Below, one piece after another: positions 3,645-50,983 of a stretch of DNA of 58,929 nt. Where the stretch lies: contig JBHIBS010000004.1 of NCBI GenBank assembly GCA_046759165.1, positions 1 to 58,929 of the forward strand, given 5' to 3'. The notes below the pieces were generated by a model. The model ran no database searches, was not told the origin of the DNA, and worked only from the letters and a program-made list of their open reading frames with translations. How positions within the stretch are numbered: position 1 is the stretch's first letter; every line of letters begins with the position of its first letter. A program made the position numbers and the translations under genes. The stretch is from a bacterium. Lineage in GTDB: Bacteria; UBA6262; WVXT01.

Positions 3645-4028
3645 ATGCCTATTGCAGACCATAAAAAATGCACAGGCTGCCGTATCTGCGAGATAATTTG
3701 CTCAGTTCAACATCATAAGGTAATGAATCCCAAATTGGCTATGGTGAAAATAAACAGCAATTGGCCCTGGGAAGACAGGGTAACAATCTGCAGGCAGTGT
3801 AAAAAGCCAAAGTGCGTTGAGGCGTGCGAGTATGAAGCTATTGAAAGGGTGGACGGCTATTTGAGAATTGACCAGGATAAATGCACTGCCTGTCTTGAGT
3901 GTGTGAAAGCCTGTCCTTTTGAGGGCGTGGTGGTCAGTGAAATAACTCAAAAACCTGTCCTCTGCGATACTTGTAATGGTGAATATCTTTGCGTCAATTG
4001 GTGTCCCCATAAAGTGCTGAGTATTTGA
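3645..4028 (+). CDS. 4Fe-4S dicluster protein (AOR-associated electron-transfer subunit)
   Basis: Four Cys clusters: CTGCRICEIIC, CRQC..PKCVEAC, CTACLECVKACP, CDTC...CVNWCP. Confidence 0.9.
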   Translation: MPIADHKKCTGCRICEIICSVQHHKVMNPKLAMVKINSNWPWEDRVTICRQCKKPKCVEACEYEAIERVDGYLRIDQDKCTACLECVKACPFEGVVVSEITQKPVLCDTCNGEYLCVNWCPHKVLSI

Positions 4029-4058
4029 GAGAGTAATAATAAAACAATTTAAGATTAT

Positions 4059-4081
4059 GCACAGATTGAATCTGTGCCTAT
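4059..4081 (-). repeat. REP-like palindrome (ATAG-GCACAGATTCAATCTGTGC on minus strand)
   Basis: Identical to 19940-19962; related to GTAG-tagged copies at 17904, 19990 and 52684. Confidence 0.75.
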
Positions 4082-4100
4082 AATGGTTTGCACACATTCT

Positions 4101-4119
4101 AAAAAATCACTCTGACCCC
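4101..4119 (-). repeat. solo copy of the RAYT terminal motif (GGGGTCAGAGTGATTTTTT)
   Basis: 19/19 identical to 50464-50482 at the 3' end of the RAYT gene. Confidence 0.8.
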
Positions 4120-4165
4120 CTTTTTCTTTTTGCTTTTTGTGTGTGTAGTAAGGAGAAGAATTTAG

Positions 4166-6007
4166 ATGGCTAAGGAGAAATTTTTTGGTTATGCTGGAAA
4201 GATTCTCACCGTGGACTTGAGTTCCTCTGACTATGTCGTTCAAGATACCCCGTTCGACCTGACGGTAGACTTCATGGGAGGCAAGGGATTTGGGGCAAAG
4301 ATTCTCTATGAGAATCTTAGGGCTGGATGTGACCCACTCTCTGAAGAGAATATCCTGATATTTGCCACAGGACCTTTAACTGGCACTCTTATACCTGCCA
4401 GTGGCAGAGCTACAGTGTGTACTAAGAGCCCGTTGACTGGAATATGGCTAGATACTCTATCGGGAGGGTTCTTTGGACCTGAGCTAAAAATGGCAGGTTA
4501 TGATGCCATAATTTTGAAAGGGAAAGCAAAGAATCCTGTTATCTTAGTTATTGACGATGAAAAAGTAACCATTGAAGATGCAAAAGACTTATGGGGCAAA
4601 GATACTTTTGAAGCTCAAGAATTGATAAGGAAGAAATATGGTGAGAGTTACCAGATTTCCCTTATTGGTCCAGCCGGGGAAAGGAAAGCGAGATTTGCCT
4701 GCATAGTTTCGGGAGACCGGGGTTTTGGACGGGGCGGTTCAGGGGCTGTTATGGGCTCAAAGAACCTGAAAGCCGTTACAGTTAGAGGAACAAAGAGTAT
4801 TTTAATATCGAATTTCGACTACTTTATGAGAATGATCAAAGAAGCATATAATGAACTCTCAGTCAATCCAGATACTAGCGCGGGCAGACCAAAGTACGGG
4901 ACTAACGTAATCTACTCCTTTATTAACGAAGCAGGGGTCCACCCGGTAAAGAATTTCCAGTCAGGTGTTTTTGAAGGCTTAAAAGAGTGTAACGAAGATG
5001 TTCTGGACAGGAAGTATTATAAGAGACATTTAGCCTGTTTCTCCTGCCCTATAAATTGCAGCAAAGCATCTCGAGTTGATGAGGGTAAGTATAAAGGCAA
5101 ATTTACGGAAGGTCCTGAATATGAAAATATGTGGAGCCTGGGTGCCCAATGTGGCAATAGCAACATAGGAGCAATAATCTATGGGGAGTATCTCTGTGAC
5201 AAGTATGGGATAGATGCTATAACGGCAGGAAATGTAATTGGGTTCACAATGGAATGCTTCGAAAAAGGAATTCTGTCAGAAAAACAGATTGGATTTAAAG
5301 CAAATTTTGGGAACGATGATGCAATAATAAAATTTATTGAAATGATGGCTAAGGGAGAGGGTATAGGAGAATTGATGAGCCAGGGTGTTCGCCAGATGGC
5401 TAAAGAGTTGGGTAAGAGCACAGAGAAATTTGCCATGCATGTTAAGGGACTGGAGATTCCTGCCTACGACCCTCGAGGAACGTTCGGCATGGGACTCGCC
5501 TATGCCACCAGCGACCGGGGCGCATGCCATTTGAGGTCGTGGACAGTGGGAGCTGAAATATTGAGCAGGGAAGAGAGGATGGATCCCTTTGCCACAGAAT
5601 TTAAAGCAGAGTTCGTAAAGAATCAACAGGACCTCTTTGCTGTAATGGATTCTGCAGTGGTCTGTCTGTTCCTAACCTTTGCCCTAACTCCTCGCCATAT
5701 AACTCAATTCCTCCAGAGCCTCACTGGAATAAAAGAGTGGAGAACTACAGAGGACATTTTGAAAATGGGAGAGAGAATATACAATCTCACAAGATTATTC
5801 TCCATGAGGGAAGGAATTTCCCGAAAAGATGACACTCTTCCCGAAAGATTGCTTAAGGAGCCTGTGAATGAGGGACCAACAAAAGGCGTTGTGGTTGACC
5901 TCGATACTATGTTAAATGAGTATTATCTGGTGAGGCACTGGGATGAAGAAGGTAGACCTATCAAGGAGAAACTTGCCGAACTCGGACTCGAGAAATACGC
6001 GGTTTAG
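4166..6007 (+). CDS. aor: aldehyde:ferredoxin oxidoreductase (AOR family, probably tungstopterin)
   Basis: GYAGKILTVDL, KSPLTG, GRGGSGAVMGSKNLKA, CFSCPINC, GPEYE, CDKYGID, DRGACH, DDTLPER. Confidence 0.93.
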   Translation: MAKEKFFGYAGKILTVDLSSSDYVVQDTPFDLTVDFMGGKGFGAKILYENLRAGCDPLSEENILIFATGPLTGTLIPASGRATVCTKSPLTGIWLDTLSGGFFGPELKMAGYDAIILKGKAKNPVILVIDDEKVTIEDAKDLWGKDTFEAQELIRKKYGESYQISLIGPAGERKARFACIVSGDRGFGRGGSGAVMGSKNLKAVTVRGTKSILISNFDYFMRMIKEAYNELSVNPDTSAGRPKYGTNVIYSFINEAGVHPVKNFQSGVFEGLKECNEDVLDRKYYKRHLACFSCPINCSKASRVDEGKYKGKFTEGPEYENMWSLGAQCGNSNIGAIIYGEYLCDKYGIDAITAGNVIGFTMECFEKGILSEKQIGFKANFGNDDAIIKFIEMMAKGEGIGELMSQGVRQMAKELGKSTEKFAMHVKGLEIPAYDPRGTFGMGLAYATSDRGACHLRSWTVGAEILSREERMDPFATEFKAEFVKNQQDLFAVMDSAVVCLFLTFALTPRHITQFLQSLTGIKEWRTTEDILKMGERIYNLTRLFSMREGISRKDDTLPERLLKEPVNEGPTKGVVVDLDTMLNEYYLVRHWDEEGRPIKEKLAELGLEKYAV

Positions 6008-21683: not shown

Positions 21684-22706
21684 ATGGAAAAATTTAGAGT
21701 TCTGATTTTTTTGTTTCTTATATTTTTCATTTTTGGTTGTGGGGAGAAAGAATATAGTAAAGTCGAATTCTTGATGGATACTGTGGTGGAAATCAAGGTA
21801 TACCACAGGAGTAAGACTGAGGCACAGGAAGCTATTGATAGTTCGATGGAAGAGATGAGAAGAGTTGAACAGAAGATGTCTTGTTTTCTTCCGGGGAGCG
21901 AGGTTTCAAGGATTAATAAGGAGGCTCTCCTTAAGGGGGCAAAGGGCTCTTTATTGGCAGAAGGCTGGATACCAGTTAGCGATGAACTTTTCTCTCTGCT
22001 GGAAGAATCAATTCACCTGTCAGAGCTCACTAAAGGTTGTTTTGATGTGACCATCTATCCCTTGTGGAAAATCTGGAAGTTTGAGGGAGAGAGTGTTAAA
22101 GTGCCAGATGAAGAAGAAATCGAAAGGAAATTACAATTGGTAGATTACAAGAATACAATCATAGAAAACGGGAAAATCAATTTTGCTAAAAGAGGAATGG
22201 GCATAGATTTGGGAGGTATAGCCAAAGGGTATGCGGTGGATGCTGCAATAAAGGCTTTGAAAGAGAAGAATGTAGAAAGTGCTATGGTCAATGCAGGAGG
22301 AGATATATATGCTTTGGGAAGAAAGCAGGAGAAACCCTGGCGGATCGGTATTCGACACCCTCGGAGGGGAGGGGAAATTTTAGGAATTGTCGAGGTGGAG
22401 GATAGGGCAATCGTTACTTCTGGCGATTATGAACGTTTCTTTTTTTCTAAAGGGAAAAGGTACCACCATATCCTCAATCCCAAGACAGGCTATCCTGCAG
22501 ACGAGTGTCAGAGCGTGACTATTATGGCTAAAAAAGCTACCTTTGCTGATGGACTGGCAACCGGAATATTCGTTTTGGGTCCGAGAGAAGGGATGGATTT
22601 GATTGAGAGTTTAGAGGAAGTAGAAGGAGTTATTGTTAATAAAGAAGGAGAAGTCTCTGTTTCTTCGGGATTGGTTTCTAAGATTGAGTATGTTAACCAG
22701 AAATGA
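21684..22706 (+). CDS. apbE: FAD:protein FMN transferase (lipoprotein)
   Basis: Lipobox IFGC; MDT, FDVT, DLGGIAKGYAVD, NAGGD, TSGDYER, YHHILNPKTG, ADGLAT. Confidence 0.93.
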   Translation: MEKFRVLIFLFLIFFIFGCGEKEYSKVEFLMDTVVEIKVYHRSKTEAQEAIDSSMEEMRRVEQKMSCFLPGSEVSRINKEALLKGAKGSLLAEGWIPVSDELFSLLEESIHLSELTKGCFDVTIYPLWKIWKFEGESVKVPDEEEIERKLQLVDYKNTIIENGKINFAKRGMGIDLGGIAKGYAVDAAIKALKEKNVESAMVNAGGDIYALGRKQEKPWRIGIRHPRRGGEILGIVEVEDRAIVTSGDYERFFFSKGKRYHHILNPKTGYPADECQSVTIMAKKATFADGLATGIFVLGPREGMDLIESLEEVEGVIVNKEGEVSVSSGLVSKIEYVNQK

Positions 22707-23055
22707 TAGGGTCCTAATATTTGGATTGGTTATTGTTGCCTTTCTCCTTTTTGTAAGGCTCTTTTTTATCTCAGGTGAGGGGAGCGAAGCTTTAATCAAA
22801 GTTGGTAATAGTCGCGTTCAAAGGTTCTCTTTGAGAATGGATAGGAGGATCGATCTTGAGGGTGAAAAAGGAAAGGTGGTTATAGAGATTAAAGATGGAA
22901 GAGTGAGAGTGGTGGAGTCAGACTGTTTACAAAAGATATGTGTAAATACAGGATGGATAGGTAAGCCAGGCCAGAATATTGTCTGTTTGCCAAATAAAGT
23001 GTTGGTCACTATAGAAGGTAAAGAAAGTCCTAAAATTGATGCAATAAGTTATTAG
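22690..23055 (+). CDS. NusG domain II-containing membrane protein
   Basis: N-terminal TM; VRVVESDCLQKICVNTGWI...IVCLPNKV. Confidence 0.88.
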   Translation: MLTRNDRVLIFGLVIVAFLLFVRLFFISGEGSEALIKVGNSRVQRFSLRMDRRIDLEGEKGKVVIEIKDGRVRVVESDCLQKICVNTGWIGKPGQNIVCLPNKVLVTIEGKESPKIDAISY

Positions 23056-23075
23056 AAAAAGAGAAAAGTGGTCTA

Positions 23076-23103
23076 GTAGAAAAGGGGTCAGAGTCATTTT
23101 TTG
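23076..23103 (+). repeat. solo copy of the RAYT terminal motif (GTAGAAAAGGGGTCAGAGTCATTTTTTG)
   Basis: 23080-23103 is 24/24 identical to 49727-49750; one mismatch to the reverse complement of 50464-50490. Confidence 0.85.
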
Positions 23104-23118
23104 CTTTGACCACTGCCT

Positions 23119-23260
23119 GTTCCCGATTGAAAATCGGGACGAGCGACTGAAATCCCGATTTTCAATGGCCACTCGGAATGACATCTTTTCTTCGATTTTT
23201 TGGCTAAAAATTCTAATGCCTGTGCCAATGGTACTCGCTACACCAAATTGCTCCGCATGG
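23119..23260. repeat. mosaic of repeat fragments
   Basis: Palindrome TCCCGATTGAAAATCGGGA (related to 56405-29); GAGCGACTG...CTCGGAATGACA (RPE-like); CGCTACACCAAATT shared with the 14371 MITE. Confidence 0.55.
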
Positions 23261-23321
23261 TCAATGCAGGGGTTTCGATTCATCAAATCGGTTTCTTGTG
23301 CCTTTGGAGGCAATTTGTGAG

Positions 23322-23879
23322 ATGAATGGGGAGAAGAGAATATTATACATTTCAGTTTTGATTGCTCTTGCTTCCACGCTACAGATAGTGGAGAGTCTCT
23401 TTCCCCATCCGCTTCCCTGGCTGCGGCTCGGGTTGGCAAATATGATTACTTTGACCAGTCTGGTTATCTTCGGATATGCTATAGCAGTTCAGGTGGCTGT
23501 GTTGAGGACGATTTTGAGTTCTTTTCTTCTAGGTACATTCTTTACGCCTGGTTTCTTTTTGAGTTTTTCTGGTGCGCTGATGAGTGCTCTGGTAATGGGT
23601 GGAATTTATAGTCTGGGGAGGGTGGCAAAGGGTAATCCTTCTCGCCGTTATCCGTTTGGTTTTAGCATTATAGGAGTGAGCATTCTGGGAGCAGTGACTC
23701 ATAATGTTACGCAACTTTTTGTTGCCTATTTTTTCCTGATAAGGCATAGAGGGGTATTTTTAATTCTTCCATTTTTGATAGTGGCAGCGGTTATTACTGG
23801 CTTTATAACCGGGTATGGAGCAAATAGCTTGAGTAGGCAAGTGGAGAAGATAACGGTAGAGGCCGGTAAACCCCGTTAA
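23322..23879 (+). CDS. Gx transporter family (heptaprenyl diphosphate synthase component I-like) membrane protein
   Basis: ESLFPHPLPWLRLGLAN, SIIGVSILGAVTHNVTQL. Confidence 0.88.
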   Translation: MNGEKRILYISVLIALASTLQIVESLFPHPLPWLRLGLANMITLTSLVIFGYAIAVQVAVLRTILSSFLLGTFFTPGFFLSFSGALMSALVMGGIYSLGRVAKGNPSRRYPFGFSIIGVSILGAVTHNVTQLFVAYFFLIRHRGVFLILPFLIVAAVITGFITGYGANSLSRQVEKITVEAGKPR

Positions 23880-23979
23880 GGATTTATCTCTAACGGGACA
23901 CTCCAAGCGATTGATTTCTTACACCATCCCTGCCCCGTTGGATGCTTGCTATCTAACCGGGGTGACGGTTTGGCAGACG

Positions 23980-24594
23980 ATGAAGAGATTGATTCTAGCT
24001 TCCAGTTCTTCTCGCAGACAACAGATCCTCTTTCAGCTGGGCTTAAAATTTCAAGTGATGCCATCGCATCTTTTCGAGGAACATCCAGTTTCTTTCAGGG
24101 GGAGATTGGTGCCATCGAGAATAGTGGAGAAATTGGCGTTGCGGAAAGCAAAAGAAGTTTCCCAGAGGGTTTCTGAGGGACTGGTCATTGGTGCGGACAC
24201 GATAGTTGCTCTGAAGACCAGTGAGAGAGGGAGATTGAAATTTGAGATTATCGGTAAGCCTGAGACAGTCGAAGAGGCAAAAGAGATTTTGAGACGATTG
24301 GGTGGCACAAGCCATGAAGTTTATACAGGAGTTGCAATTGTTGATGCTAAAACAGGTAGAAAGGCTTTGGGACATGAAGTTTCCAGGGTGAGGATGAAGA
24401 AGCTCACGAATCGAGAGATCTCCAGGGTAAGCCGTATGCATTTGGACAAAGCAGGAGCTTATGGGGTTAAAGAGAAGAAGGATGGCTTTGTAGAATTGCT
24501 GGAAGGGCCTCTGGATAATGTGGTGGGTATGCCCCAGAAATTATTGAAGGAGTTGCTTGAAAAATTTAGTGTGAAGGTGAAGTTTCAATGTTAG
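23980..24594 (+). CDS. maf: Maf-family nucleoside triphosphate pyrophosphatase
   Basis: LILASSSSRR, IGADT, IGKP, HEVYTG, DKAGAYG, NVVGMP. Confidence 0.92.
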   Translation: MKRLILASSSSRRQQILFQLGLKFQVMPSHLFEEHPVSFRGRLVPSRIVEKLALRKAKEVSQRVSEGLVIGADTIVALKTSERGRLKFEIIGKPETVEEAKEILRRLGGTSHEVYTGVAIVDAKTGRKALGHEVSRVRMKKLTNREISRVSRMHLDKAGAYGVKEKKDGFVELLEGPLDNVVGMPQKLLKELLEKFSVKVKFQC

Positions 24595-24617
24595 AAGTAC
24601 CTTTCTAACATTTCTTT

Positions 24618-25298
24618 TTAGGAGCCTTTTTCAATTTTATCTAAGTTGTTAATTATCTTTGCTTTTTGGTGTAAGCTTATCAGCCATTGTCTGTAGAGAA
24701 GTATCTTCTTTTCCTCAAGAAGATTTTTCTTGAAATCTTCTTCTTTCTCTTTTGTTTTTCTTCGTTCATATTCATCTTTCACTTCTTGATCGGTGACTTT
24801 AACACTGGAAAGGATGAGGCTTCTCAATTTTTGATTGGTAATTGCTCTTTTAATCTGGGTTTCATATGTAGACGGTTCGGTCCGAAAATAGTTGCGGAGA
24901 ATGTAAAAATATAAGTCGGGCTCGAACTTTCCATCTCTCTGGAATTGGGGCAGGGAACGTATTGTATTTATTACTTCGCTCTTGCTTACATAAATTCCGT
25001 ACCTTTTTGCTTCCTGATGCAGGAGCTCTTCCTGGATAAGGGAACTTAACACTCCGGATTTAATTTCCCTTATTTGGGCATCGGTGAGTTCTCCTTCTGG
25101 GTTTTCGTCGTACCAGTTGCGAATTCTTCTGTGGACTACGTCTAAAAAGGAAGAATAGGAAATTTTAGTTCCGTTGACCTGAGCCGCACAATCGATTAGG
25201 CGGCGAGTGGAGAAATTCCAGAGGAAGATGCCGATGATAAAAGCAACAGCAATACACCATAAAAAGGTCTTTACGTTTTTTCTCAGAAAGTTCATCAT
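24618..25298 (-). CDS. SurA N-terminal domain protein (PpiD-like chaperone)
   Basis: N-terminal TM; AQVNGTKIS, LIQEELLHQEA, PQFQRDGKF, VTDQEV. Confidence 0.85.
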   Translation of the reverse strand: MMNFLRKNVKTFLWCIAVAFIIGIFLWNFSTRRLIDCAAQVNGTKISYSSFLDVVHRRIRNWYDENPEGELTDAQIREIKSGVLSSLIQEELLHQEAKRYGIYVSKSEVINTIRSLPQFQRDGKFEPDLYFYILRNYFRTEPSTYETQIKRAITNQKLRSLILSSVKVTDQEVKDEYERRKTKEKEEDFKKNLLEEKKILLYRQWLISLHQKAKIINNLDKIEKGS

Positions 25299-39995: not shown

Positions 39996-40069
39996 GTAGG
40001 GGTCTGGCTGATGTCTGGTCCTCTTCACCTTAGCCCTTTCAGAGATGTGTAATATGGAGAGCTAACCCC
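39996..40069. repeat. degenerate GTAG-REP (39996-40021) plus CTGACCCC-type end motif (40046-40069)
   Basis: GTAGGGGTCTGGC..GTCTGGTCC; 40046-69 matches 42198-42221 at 20/24. Confidence 0.5.
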
Positions 40070-42197: not shown

Positions 42198-42221
42198 TGT
42201 GTAATGTCGAGACCTGACCCC
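42198..42221 (-). repeat. GGGGTCAG-type end motif (GGGGTCAGGTCTCGACATTACACA)
   Basis: Shares the GGGGTCAG core with the RAYT termini; second copy at 40046-69. Confidence 0.55.
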
Positions 42222-49551: not shown

Positions 49552-49628
49552 GCCCTCGTAGCTCAATTGGATAGAGCAGCGGCCTTCTAAGCCGTCGGTT
49601 GTCCGTTCGAGTCGGACCGAGGGTGCCA
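49552..49628 (+). tRNA. tRNA-Arg (TCT)
   Basis: Acceptor GCCCTCG/CGAGGGT, anticodon loop CTTCTAA, T-arm GTCCG-TTCGAGT-CGGAC, CCA. Confidence 0.93.
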
Positions 49629-49632
49629 ATAT

Positions 49633-49708
49633 GGTGGGTGTAGCTCAATGGTAGAGCACATGGCTGTGGCCCATGTGGTTGCGGGTTCGAATCCCGTCAT
49701 CCACCCCA
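49633..49708 (+). tRNA. tRNA-His (GTG)
   Basis: G-1, acceptor GTGGGTG/CATCCAC, anticodon loop CTGTGGC, discriminator C, CCA. Confidence 0.95.
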
Positions 49709-49750
49709 AATTTTTTGCCGAAGAAAAAAAGGGGTCAGAGTCATTTTTTG

Positions 49751-49779
49751 TTGACAGACATGTTTAGTTTCTTTATAAT
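49751..49779 (+). promoter_or_regulatory. consensus sigma70 promoter of the RAYT gene (near-leaderless)
   Basis: TTGACA-17 nt-TATAAT; ATG only 9 nt after the -10; no SD. Confidence 0.75.
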
Positions 49780-49788
49780 TTATTTGTC

Positions 49789-50478
49789 ATGTCAAGGCAA
49801 CCAAGATTAGTCGTTGGGGGATATCCTCACCACATCGTCTTAAGGGGAAATAACCGAAACGCTATCTTCTACAGTGATGAAGACAGGCGGTTTTTTATTG
49901 ATTGTTTAAAAGATGCCAAAGAGAAAACAAAATCAAAGATATATGCTTACTGTTTAATGACAAATCATGTTCATCTGCTTATTGAGCCCTCGGCGGAAGA
50001 TGGCCTTGGAAATATGATGCAGTCATTGGGTAGGAAATATGTGCAGCACATAAACCATACTTACAAAAGAACGGGCACTCTCTGGGAAGGTAGATTTAGG
50101 AGCAGTTTGGTAAGTAAGGATGAATATCTTTTGGCTTGTTGTAGATACATCGAGTCAAATCCTGTGAGGGCGAAAATGGTAAAAGACCCCAGGGACTATC
50201 CTTGGTCAAGTTTTGGATTTAGGGCAGAAGGTAAACCGGATATTCTTCTTGATGAAGATCCTGTGTATCTAGGTTTAGGGAAAACGGAGGAACAAAGACA
50301 ATTGAATTACAAGAAGTGTTTCTTAAATGTTATTCCTGATAAGGAATTAGATCTAATGAGGACTACGACACAAAAGGGTGGCATTATAGGGGGCAAAGAA
50401 TTTATTGATAAAATTTCAAAATTATTGGGTAGGGACGTTGTTTTGAGACAGAGGGGAAGACCGAAAAAATCACTCTGA
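49789..50478 (+). CDS. REP-associated tyrosine transposase-like (Y1/HUH, IS200-like fold)
   Basis: HHIVLRGNNR, YCLMTNHVHLL (HUH), GTLWEGRF, RYIESNPVRA, DYPWSS. Confidence 0.92.
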   Translation: MSRQPRLVVGGYPHHIVLRGNNRNAIFYSDEDRRFFIDCLKDAKEKTKSKIYAYCLMTNHVHLLIEPSAEDGLGNMMQSLGRKYVQHINHTYKRTGTLWEGRFRSSLVSKDEYLLACCRYIESNPVRAKMVKDPRDYPWSSFGFRAEGKPDILLDEDPVYLGLGKTEEQRQLNYKKCFLNVIPDKELDLMRTTTQKGGIIGGKEFIDKISKLLGRDVVLRQRGRPKKSL

Positions 50479-50524
50479 CCCCTTTTCTACTTTTCTCTCT
50501 GACTGCATTTGAAGGAGAGCTGGC

Positions 50525-50983
50525 ATGAGAATTTCGGATTACTTAAGAGAGGATATGATTTGCCTCGACCTGAAAGCAACAGAAAAGGAAGAAGCAATCA
50601 AGGAATTGGGGGGTTTCATTCGTAAGGCTAAAGAGATAGGTAATTATGAGATGTTCCACAAGGATGTTCTGGAGCGAGAGAAACTCACCACAACTGGTAT
50701 AGGTGATGGAGTGGGTCTGCCTCATGCCAGAACTGATGCTGTTACCGGGTTTGTAATCGCCTTCGGCAAGTCTGAAAAGGGTGTTCAGTTTGATTCTGTA
50801 GATGGGAAGAAAGCAAGACTTCTGTTTTTGATGGGTACCCCGAAAACAGCTGGGCTTGATGAATATCTGGTGTTACTTGCCCATTTGACAAGATTATTGA
50901 AGGGAGAATCTTTCCGTGAATCGCTTCTTAAAGCCAAGAGCTCTGCTGAGATAATCGATATTTTCAGGAGCTTTGAGAAATAG
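50525..50983 (+). CDS. stand-alone PTS EIIA (Fru/Ntr type) domain protein
   Basis: REKLTTTGIGDGVGLPHAR (phospho-His), FDSVDG. Confidence 0.92.
   Translation: MRISDYLREDMICLDLKATEKEEAIKELGGFIRKAKEIGNYEMFHKDVLEREKLTTTGIGDGVGLPHARTDAVTGFVIAFGKSEKGVQFDSVDGKKARLLFLMGTPKTAGLDEYLVLLAHLTRLLKGESFRESLLKAKSSAEIIDIFRSFEK

Follow-up and report, generated by a model that had tools for sequence, protein, structure and literature searches.

A probable TIRtron beside a tRNA-His gene and the dispersal of its end motif in an uncultivated bacterial lineage

The DNA analysed here (the window) is a 58,929-nt contig, C4 (GenBank JBHIBS010000004.1), of the 1.885-Mb assembly G000 (GCA_046759165.1; 165 contigs, 92% complete). 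It contains a 763-bp unit (49724–50486) that is probably a TIRtron, in which a TIRYT gene (TnpA-Y1 subclass 2.1; Group 1 RAYT) with its own promoter lies between two cognate inverted repeats bearing the octamer GGGGWSAS. This assignment is the best explanation overall, and the locus is a clear further example of a kind of element described in 2013 and not a new kind of system. The names TIRtron for the unit and TIRYT for the enzyme were coined by Di Nocera, De Gregorio and Rocco (2013; BMC Genomics 14:522; PMC3733652). According to that work, TIRtron ends share GGGGWSAS (GGGG[AT][CG]A[CG]), the 3′ end overlaps the gene, and some end families are "moderately abundant", with single, dimeric and grouped copies.

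The unit and its transposase

The unit consists of the following features.

49724–49749, plus strand: left terminal inverted repeat, delimited by information content (A run 49724–49730, 13-nt core 49731–49743, T run 49744–49749)
49751–49779, plus strand: sigma-70-type consensus promoter of the transposase gene (TTGACA 49751–49756, 17-nt spacer, TATAAT 49774–49779; 12/12 positions)
49789–50478, plus strand: TIRYT gene, 229 aa, with the HUH motif in NHVH (H60 and H62), the catalytic tyrosine in YIESNP (Y120), a helical C-terminal extension and the tail RQRGRPKKSL
50464–50486, minus strand: right terminal inverted repeat, with the G variant at core position 12

The left (49727–49749) and right (50464–50486, minus strand) arms are identical at 22 of 23 positions, with C/G as the sole difference, and the core of the left end opens with a GGGGWSAS-type octamer, GGGGTCAG. 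The TIRYT gene is the only open reading frame (ORF) between the arms, and its last four codons (K-K-S-L) and TGA stop are encoded within the right arm. The −35 element begins one base past the left arm. Because the −10 element ends 9 nt before the ATG, the transposase mRNA is likely to be leaderless or nearly so. An earlier sequence-only reading of the window had already placed inverted 23-bp ends around the gene, with the right end supplying the last codons and the stop and the left end abutting the −35 of a perfect promoter, and all of these observations hold.

The protein shares its fold and catalytic motifs with the Y1 HUH nucleases associated with repetitive extragenic palindromes (REPs), in agreement with its earlier description as a RAYT-like HUH transposase. 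It matches Pfam Y1_Tnp (E 2e-16) and the NCBIfam REP_Tyr_transpos equivalog (85.8 bits, above the cut-off of 80), and the NCBIfam IS200 equivalog NF033573 scores 24 bits, below its cut-off of 55. In an alignment of 31 relatives at 49–81% identity, the H60, H62, Y120 and N124 residues are invariant, and the WSS motif (W139-S140-S141) is invariant or nearly so. An LWEGRF motif is present beside NHVH and YIESNP, and the tail residues G223, R224 and P225 are kept in at least 90% of the aligned sequences.

The AlphaFold model of the protein has a mean pLDDT of 86. Among solved structures, it most closely matches the complex of E. coli TnpA-REP with a REP hairpin (4er8_A; Foldseek E 4e-8; Z 16.4; root-mean-square deviation 2.7 over 159 residues), and the TnpA structures of IS608 and ISDra2 rank next (Z 8–10). 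The structural matches scarcely cover residues beyond ~177, and the modelled fold thus applies to the part before the tail region. Residues 140–229 gave no helix-turn-helix (HTH) or DnaA-C match in Pfam, and the AT-hook family PF02178 alone was found, below threshold.

The unit begins 16 nt downstream of the second of two tRNA genes, both identified by ARAGORN and Rfam.

49552–49628, plus strand: tRNA-Arg(TCT)
49634–49708, plus strand: tRNA-His(GTG)

The synteny of an mscS-like gene, tRNA-Arg and tRNA-His is common to a relative at 93–95% identity (L035) and to another genus of the family. An Rfam scan of the whole window at gathering thresholds returned three tRNAs only, and the arm motif matches no Rfam family. 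Directly 3′ of the unit, 50525–50983 encodes a 152-aa protein that resembles, by eye, a PTS EIIA or PtsN-type regulator; the 1.5 kb that follows tRNA-His in the other genus yielded no counterpart.

Cognate ends of homologs and assignment to the TIRtron class

The end sequence co-varies with the protein, both within the genome and across genomes. G000 holds two intact Y1 genes and one fragment; the window gene is present in a single copy, with no near-identical second. The other intact gene belongs to a second TIRtron (C40:2349–3097), whose TIRYT is 34% identical to that of the window and which has inverted ends of its own (A run, GGGGWSAS-type core, T run). Seven good copies of the C40-type end occur in the genome, including an inverted doublet at C16:13970–14090. 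Across genomes, flanking inverted repeats (score at least 30) were found at 62 of the 71 homolog loci with usable flanks, yielding 54 distinct arms, and the expectation that homologs carry cognate inverted ends was thereby confirmed. By hand count, the strict octamer GGGGWSAS is present in 23 of these arms and GGG[AT]C in 46. In orthologs from other metagenomes, the 13-nt core and its A and T runs are identical at protein identities of 65–99%, and several orthologs have two tandem arms per end. Classical GTAG palindromes accompany the more distant short RAYTs of the homolog set.

The homologs were collected at E ≤1e-10 (28 of 61 genomes) and by profile at ≤1e-45 (54 of 401 genomes). A scan of the collection with the single protein gave three loci; the phylum of the window is represented there by 12 genomes and that of G055 by two.

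Further end types are present in G000. Three solo copies of the C40 type on contig C11 (6354, 35963 and 36044) form head-to-tail clusters with window-type arms. A partial third TIRYT paralog with an in-frame TAG lies at a contig end (C118:2031–2469) and is followed by a third end type, which flanks intact genes in G003, G008 and L003. The end type of long (~320 aa) TIRYTs in other phyla is represented by isolated copies at 42203–42221 (minus strand), C73:402 and C146:90/372, and the C146 pair is inverted and ~280 nt apart. With one exact copy and a few weak ones, this type was rejected as a family here, and no cognate long-form TIRYT gene was found in the assembly. The looser relatives of the motif reported by the sequence-only reading stand in part: 42203–42221 is a good copy, but of this other end type, which has few copies in the genome, and four or more positions are mismatched in the sites near 40069 and 47795. 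Moreover, G000 contains a classical GTAG-tagged REP family of at least 32 copies with a GC-stemmed 24-nt hairpin (e.g. C66:427–450), which is also found in the right flank of the L039 locus of a relative. No classical RAYT for this family was found in the assembly beside the two TIRYT genes; either its enzyme was lost or unassembled, or a TIRYT serves it.

The unit combines the properties by which TIRYTs are recognized, namely a Y1 HUH gene of the RAYT branch, inverted repeats unrelated to GTAG REPs, GGGGWSAS ends, a 3′ end overlapping the gene and, a property of some TIRYTs only, an end family repeated in the genome. As in the published TIRtrons, several distinct TIRYT genes reside in one genome, each with its own ends, and the end families are moderately abundant. 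Two things are new: the end sequence and the host lineage, that of an uncultivated bacterium from a vent-type metagenome. In addition, the portions of the 2013 text considered here do not describe flanking A/T runs, an AT-hook-like tail, a left end abutting the promoter, solo copies behind stop codons or an end family that spans a bacterial family with one intact gene.

The protein also fits TnpA-Y1 subclass 2.1 of Quentin, Siguier, Chandler and Fichant (2018; PMC6006769), which is characterized by NHVH/NH[YF]H, W[EQ] and YIELNP/Y[IV]HLNP motifs, a median length of 238 aa and a C-terminal extension with conserved SS. The corresponding features are NHVH, LWEGRF, YIESNP, W139-S140-S141 and a length of 229 aa, a fit judged by eye against Table 1 of that paper and not by its authors' hidden Markov models. 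Subclass 2.1 was equated with the TIRYTs of 2013, most of which were placed there (PMC6006769). Long (~320 aa) members of the subclass have a DnaA-C/HTH domain, and the present short form is without it. In the parts of that study drawn on here, no REP-like structure was found for subclass 2.1, whereas about half of the end families examined in this work fold into small hairpins with AT-plus-GGG/CCC stems. Group 1 RAYTs (Bertels, Gallie and Rainey 2017; PMC5581495), which among the true RAYTs form the largest group and the most IS-like one, have flanking 16-mers at ~12 per replicon, compared with ~22 end copies here; the low copy number and the lack of a canonical REP are shared.

Three better-studied systems resemble the unit less closely. 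The E. coli REPtron (TnpA-REP with REP/BIME; PDB 4er8; Ton-Hoang 2012; Messing 2012; Corneloup 2021, PMC8266576) is similar in protein structure, inverted cognate flanks and intergenic dispersal, and probably, by analogy, in its single-strand HUH/Tyr chemistry. However, the present ends lack both the GT[AG]G tag and the bulged GC-rich palindrome, their copies number ~20 and not hundreds, and the protein is at most 21% identical in sequence and has ~65 additional C-terminal residues. A classical REP/RAYT assignment was rejected, as the unit's own arm folds at −2.1 kcal/mol with an A:T stem only and GTAG is not conserved. The earlier description of the ends as non-palindromic is accordingly correct in that they contain no GTAG-tagged GC-rich palindrome, but their A and T runs are complementary and permit this weak fold. 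The REPIN/RAYT system (Bertels and Rainey 2011; PMC3116915) has a counterpart in inverted doublets that form long hairpins at several loci of the family genomes G001 and G002; unlike REPINs, singlets prevail in G000 (1 doublet in 22 copies), and the arms are not REPs.

The third system, IS200/IS605 (TnpA of IS608 and ISDra2), shares the Y1 HUH fold. Insertion of IS608 is biased towards one replication strand, and the strand bias described below is comparable. The IS200/IS605 ends are same-strand subterminal hairpins, whereas the present ends are inverted, and the tyrosine motif here is Y...NP and not Y...Q. Elements of that family typically encode a short TnpA (~150 aa), exist as several near-identical copies and often include tnpB. 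Membership in IS200/IS605 was rejected on these grounds and on the sub-threshold NF033573 score, the single gene copy with a nearest paralog at 34% identity, and the lone ORF without tnpB.

Dispersal of the end motif and alternative explanations

The end motif is dispersed in the genome. An 18-nt pattern occurs four times in the window, whereas 100 shuffles predict 0.03 occurrences. Across the genome, the 13-nt core (at most one mismatch) with A and T runs was counted 23 times, one copy entering twice across overlapping contig ends; a 20-nt pattern gave 22 copies and its reversed control none. Based on information content, the repeated unit comprises ~5 A, the 13-nt core and 5–6 T. All copies lie outside long ORFs, i.e. 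in intergenic regions, and occur as singlets, tandem pairs and inverted doublets. The genome-wide count bears out the earlier claim of dispersal as solo copies, and the two exact distant copies on which it relied were recovered in the window at 4102–4119 (minus strand) and 23084–23101 (plus strand).

4101–4125, minus strand: solo copy, right-end (G) type, between divergently oriented genes
23080–23102, plus strand: solo copy, left-end type, ~28 nt past the stop codon of a small ORF in the same orientation; palindromic sequence follows

Eighteen solo or tandem copies remain when the two arms of the unit, a doublet on contig C32 and the duplicate are subtracted from the total. Sixteen of the 18 are on the G-rich strand, and all but one carry the left-end variant. 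Among the 16 with an upstream neighbour, 13 are co-oriented with it, and in nine solos a stop codon lies 3–19 nt before the core. A hairpin of unrelated sequence was observed by eye, with no control, within ~25 nt after most solos and is probably the terminator of the upstream gene. The GTAG-AAAA that had been noted before some copies is not a feature of the motif: GTAG directly precedes the A run in 2 of 21 copies only.

The GC skew is ~+0.20 on the majority-gene strand and still +0.12 in minority-orientation genes (positive in 74% of cases), some of which may be mislabelled by the crude ORF caller; the skew therefore follows the replication strand. Strand asymmetry in G000 is very strong overall, with a GC skew of ~0.2 and ~92% of called ORFs co-oriented with their neighbours.

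Six contig ends fall in, or within ~70 nt of, a 24-nt unit (C38:9–38, C39:13440–13452, C59:63–75, C85:4020–4064, and C130:6–18 and 2048–2060), and a contig of sequencing run X2 also ends at 4100; the assembly seems to be broken by the repeats or by strain variation at them. Directly after the 23080 solo, a palindrome and a second, inverted half-copy (23117–23170) look like another small repeat family, and the related strains X4 and X5 show 32-nt skips there. No tandem repeat was found by a search at 22000–25000.

The unit and gene-less miniature derivatives of it are present at differing loci in close relatives. Relatives at 83–89% identity contain a full unit (L036) and internally deleted units (L039, L041, L042 and L044), which sit at loci syntenic with C5, C4 56349–56753 and C66, where G000 has none. 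At 83–89% identity, the flanks compared (L036 with C5, L039 with C4 56349–56753, and L044 with C66) have diverged too far for precise junctions or duplicated targets to be delimited. The left arm of both L039 and L044 begins immediately at the stop codon (TAA) of an upstream gene in the same orientation. In G000 itself, the C32 doublet (C32:1987–2089) is a 103-nt mini-TIRtron retaining the last ~35 nt of the gene; the match of its interior to the gene interior alone is not significant (score reached by 18 of 300 shuffles). The doublet is orthologous to doublets in G001 (L098) and G002 (L087), and thus spans three genera, but is inverted in G000 relative to the shared flank. Many copies in G001 and G002 are arranged as inverted doublets (core-to-core distance 61–174 nt), which give long hairpins when folded, and two loci of G002 share one doublet and spacer type.

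The tRNA-His site, at which a look for empty sites in relatives had been suggested, is occupied in several of them: L035 has the full unit with a doubled left arm, and G004, G005, G003 and G008, of another genus, have a solo arm directly downstream of tRNA-His, with one differing position in G003 and G008. G007 has none. In the related strains X4 and X5, the 23084 solo is kept with a 7-nt deletion just upstream, and the stretch 4007–4175 is replaced by 49 other letters. The sequencing runs were examined as Logan contigs, in which rare excision products or circles would not appear. Candidate joints (23102/4101 and short-sided joints) were rejected as rearrangements because they are matches through the repeat itself.

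The 20-nt pattern occurs at 5–33 copies in each of the nine family genomes (reversed control 0). Apart from G000, these genomes contain paralogs of at most 38% identity or gene fragments within mini-elements. Either the repeats have survived there with no enzyme, or the assemblies have failed to capture its gene.

These distributions bear on three other explanations. The locus may be an ordinary autonomous insertion sequence (IS)-like element of the IS200 kind, the solos being scars of insertions, deletions and decayed doublets, although this is unlikely. The full and internally deleted units at differing loci and the gene remnant in the C32 doublet fit this account, as does the solo of the other genus, which lies downstream of tRNA-His exactly at the position of the G000 left end and agrees with a gene loss that left one end. 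The description of Group 1 as the most IS-like true RAYT group (PMC5581495) points the same way. However, the assembly holds one gene copy with no near-identical second, and in the flanks inspected none of the 18 extra copies, all singlets or tandem pairs, shows a remnant of a second arm. Decay of doublets should leave both end variants, whereas nearly all solos carry the left-end variant. The IS200 equivalog score and the inverted orientation of the ends, unlike those of IS200/IS605, also disagree with it.

It is more doubtful still that the motif is kept mainly for a host function, as an RNA element of 3′ untranslated regions past stop codons or as a protein-binding DNA site, with the transposase as an occasional companion. 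All nine family genomes keep copies that are perfect or have a single differing position, only one of these genomes having an intact gene, and four other genomes retain the copy that follows tRNA-His despite diverged flanks. The co-orientation of solos with upstream genes, their closeness to stop codons and the left ends located at the upstream TAA in L039 and L044 would also suit such a function. Nevertheless, the motif has no Rfam match, and the genomes without a homolog have the fewest copies and the smallest proportion of perfect ones (8 of 16 in G006 and 3 of 5 in G007, compared with 18 of 22 in G000), a pattern that looks like decay after loss of the enzyme. Moreover, a different paralog goes with a different motif, which is what a recognition site would show. 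Closeness to stop codons has been reported for ordinary REPs as well.

A distinct, undescribed HUH-transposase/repeat system, as proposed by the sequence-only reading, is very improbable despite the arms without a GC-rich hairpin or GTAG tag and the lack of a REP-like structure in the material on subclass 2.1 considered here (PMC6006769), since the same gene type, inverted-end layout and end motif are already in print (PMC3733652; PMC6006769). A match to a known RAYT class with such ends was a condition that the sequence-only reading itself had named for its refutation, and this match was obtained.

A possible mode of end recognition

By analogy with E. coli TnpA-REP and IS608 TnpA, TIRYT would bind one strand of the end motif when it is single-stranded at the replication fork. 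The strand would then be cut and rejoined through a 5′-phosphotyrosine link, and such cutting and joining may move or copy the full unit, doublets and perhaps single arms. Three further steps are proposed here for the TIRtron. The complementary A and T runs may pair into the foot of a weak hairpin, on which the G-rich core is presented; the AT-hook-like RGRP tail, conserved at the C-terminus, may read this A/T foot; and binding at the left end would shut off the gene's own promoter.

The 5–7-nt A run and the 5–6-nt T run that flank the core are complementary. A hairpin of at least 4 bp that includes the G run is formed by 29 of the 54 distinct arms, and 17 of the 54 fold at or below the 5% level of shuffles. 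Several related end families have 8–12-bp stems of A/T plus GGG/CCC. AT-hooks consist of an R-G-R-P core with basic flanks and bind the minor groove of A/T tracts. Since the left arm abuts the −35, repression of the gene by its own protein is possible, and a promoter matching at least 9 of 12 consensus positions starts within 12 nt of the left arm at 13 of 48 distinct homolog loci. Contact between the C-terminal tail and the tetranucleotide at the foot of the hairpin is known from E. coli TnpA-REP (PMC8266576).

The steps can be joined into one reading, to which a low probability is assigned. TIRYT ends would be minimal hairpins with an A:T foot, with or without GGG:CCC, and a G-rich loop, and the AT-hook-like tail would recognise the foot as the TnpA-REP tail reads GTAG. 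Single 24-nt units would be placed on the lagging-strand template behind stop codons, and the repeat would outlive its enzyme throughout the bacterial family, hinting at a host role.

A number of observations weigh against this reading or against the picture of an active TIRtron. The fold of the unit's own arm is weak, as its −2.1 kcal/mol is reached by 5% of shuffles, and 25 of the 54 arms give no hairpin of the kind described above. The tail RQRGRPKK scores only 11.2 bits (E 0.37) against the Pfam AT-hook PF02178, below the cut-off of 17.4. The association of the tail motif with an A run beside the G run (counts 18/5/8/23 of 54, with two broken genes scored as tail-less) ignores shared ancestry. 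The strand bias of the copies is inseparable from gene direction, as 988 genes are co-oriented compared with 85 (~92%). The unit of the close relative L035 sits at the same tRNA-His site as that of G000, and recent mobility is not apparent. An intact cognate gene is present in one of the nine family genomes (G000), and no homolog was found at E ≤1 in G006 (16 copies) or G007 (5 copies), whose completeness (92% and 83%) leaves the absence unproven. Literature searches on TIRYT and TIRtron returned two descriptive papers only and no biochemical test of a TIRYT, and the biochemistry of Corneloup 2021 covers RAYT groups 2 and 3 only in the parts considered (PMC8266576). Searches pairing the AT-hook with these enzymes found nothing.

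The locus offers a good, compact example of a TIRtron from a lineage that has received little study, although the kind itself is already in print. No group of RAYT-like genes is larger than the TIRYTs (subclass 2.1, Group 1), and at issue is how a Y1 HUH enzyme handles ends without a stable hairpin. The locus is compact and complete, with 763 bp, a consensus promoter, an intact gene, one clear 24-nt unit and natural mini-elements in relatives, and therefore suits a first assay. The comparative data yield hypotheses for such work: an A:T foot may be read by the AT-hook-like tail, the left end may mediate self-repression, units may be placed with a strand bias behind stop codons, and the repeat may persist in the family without the gene.

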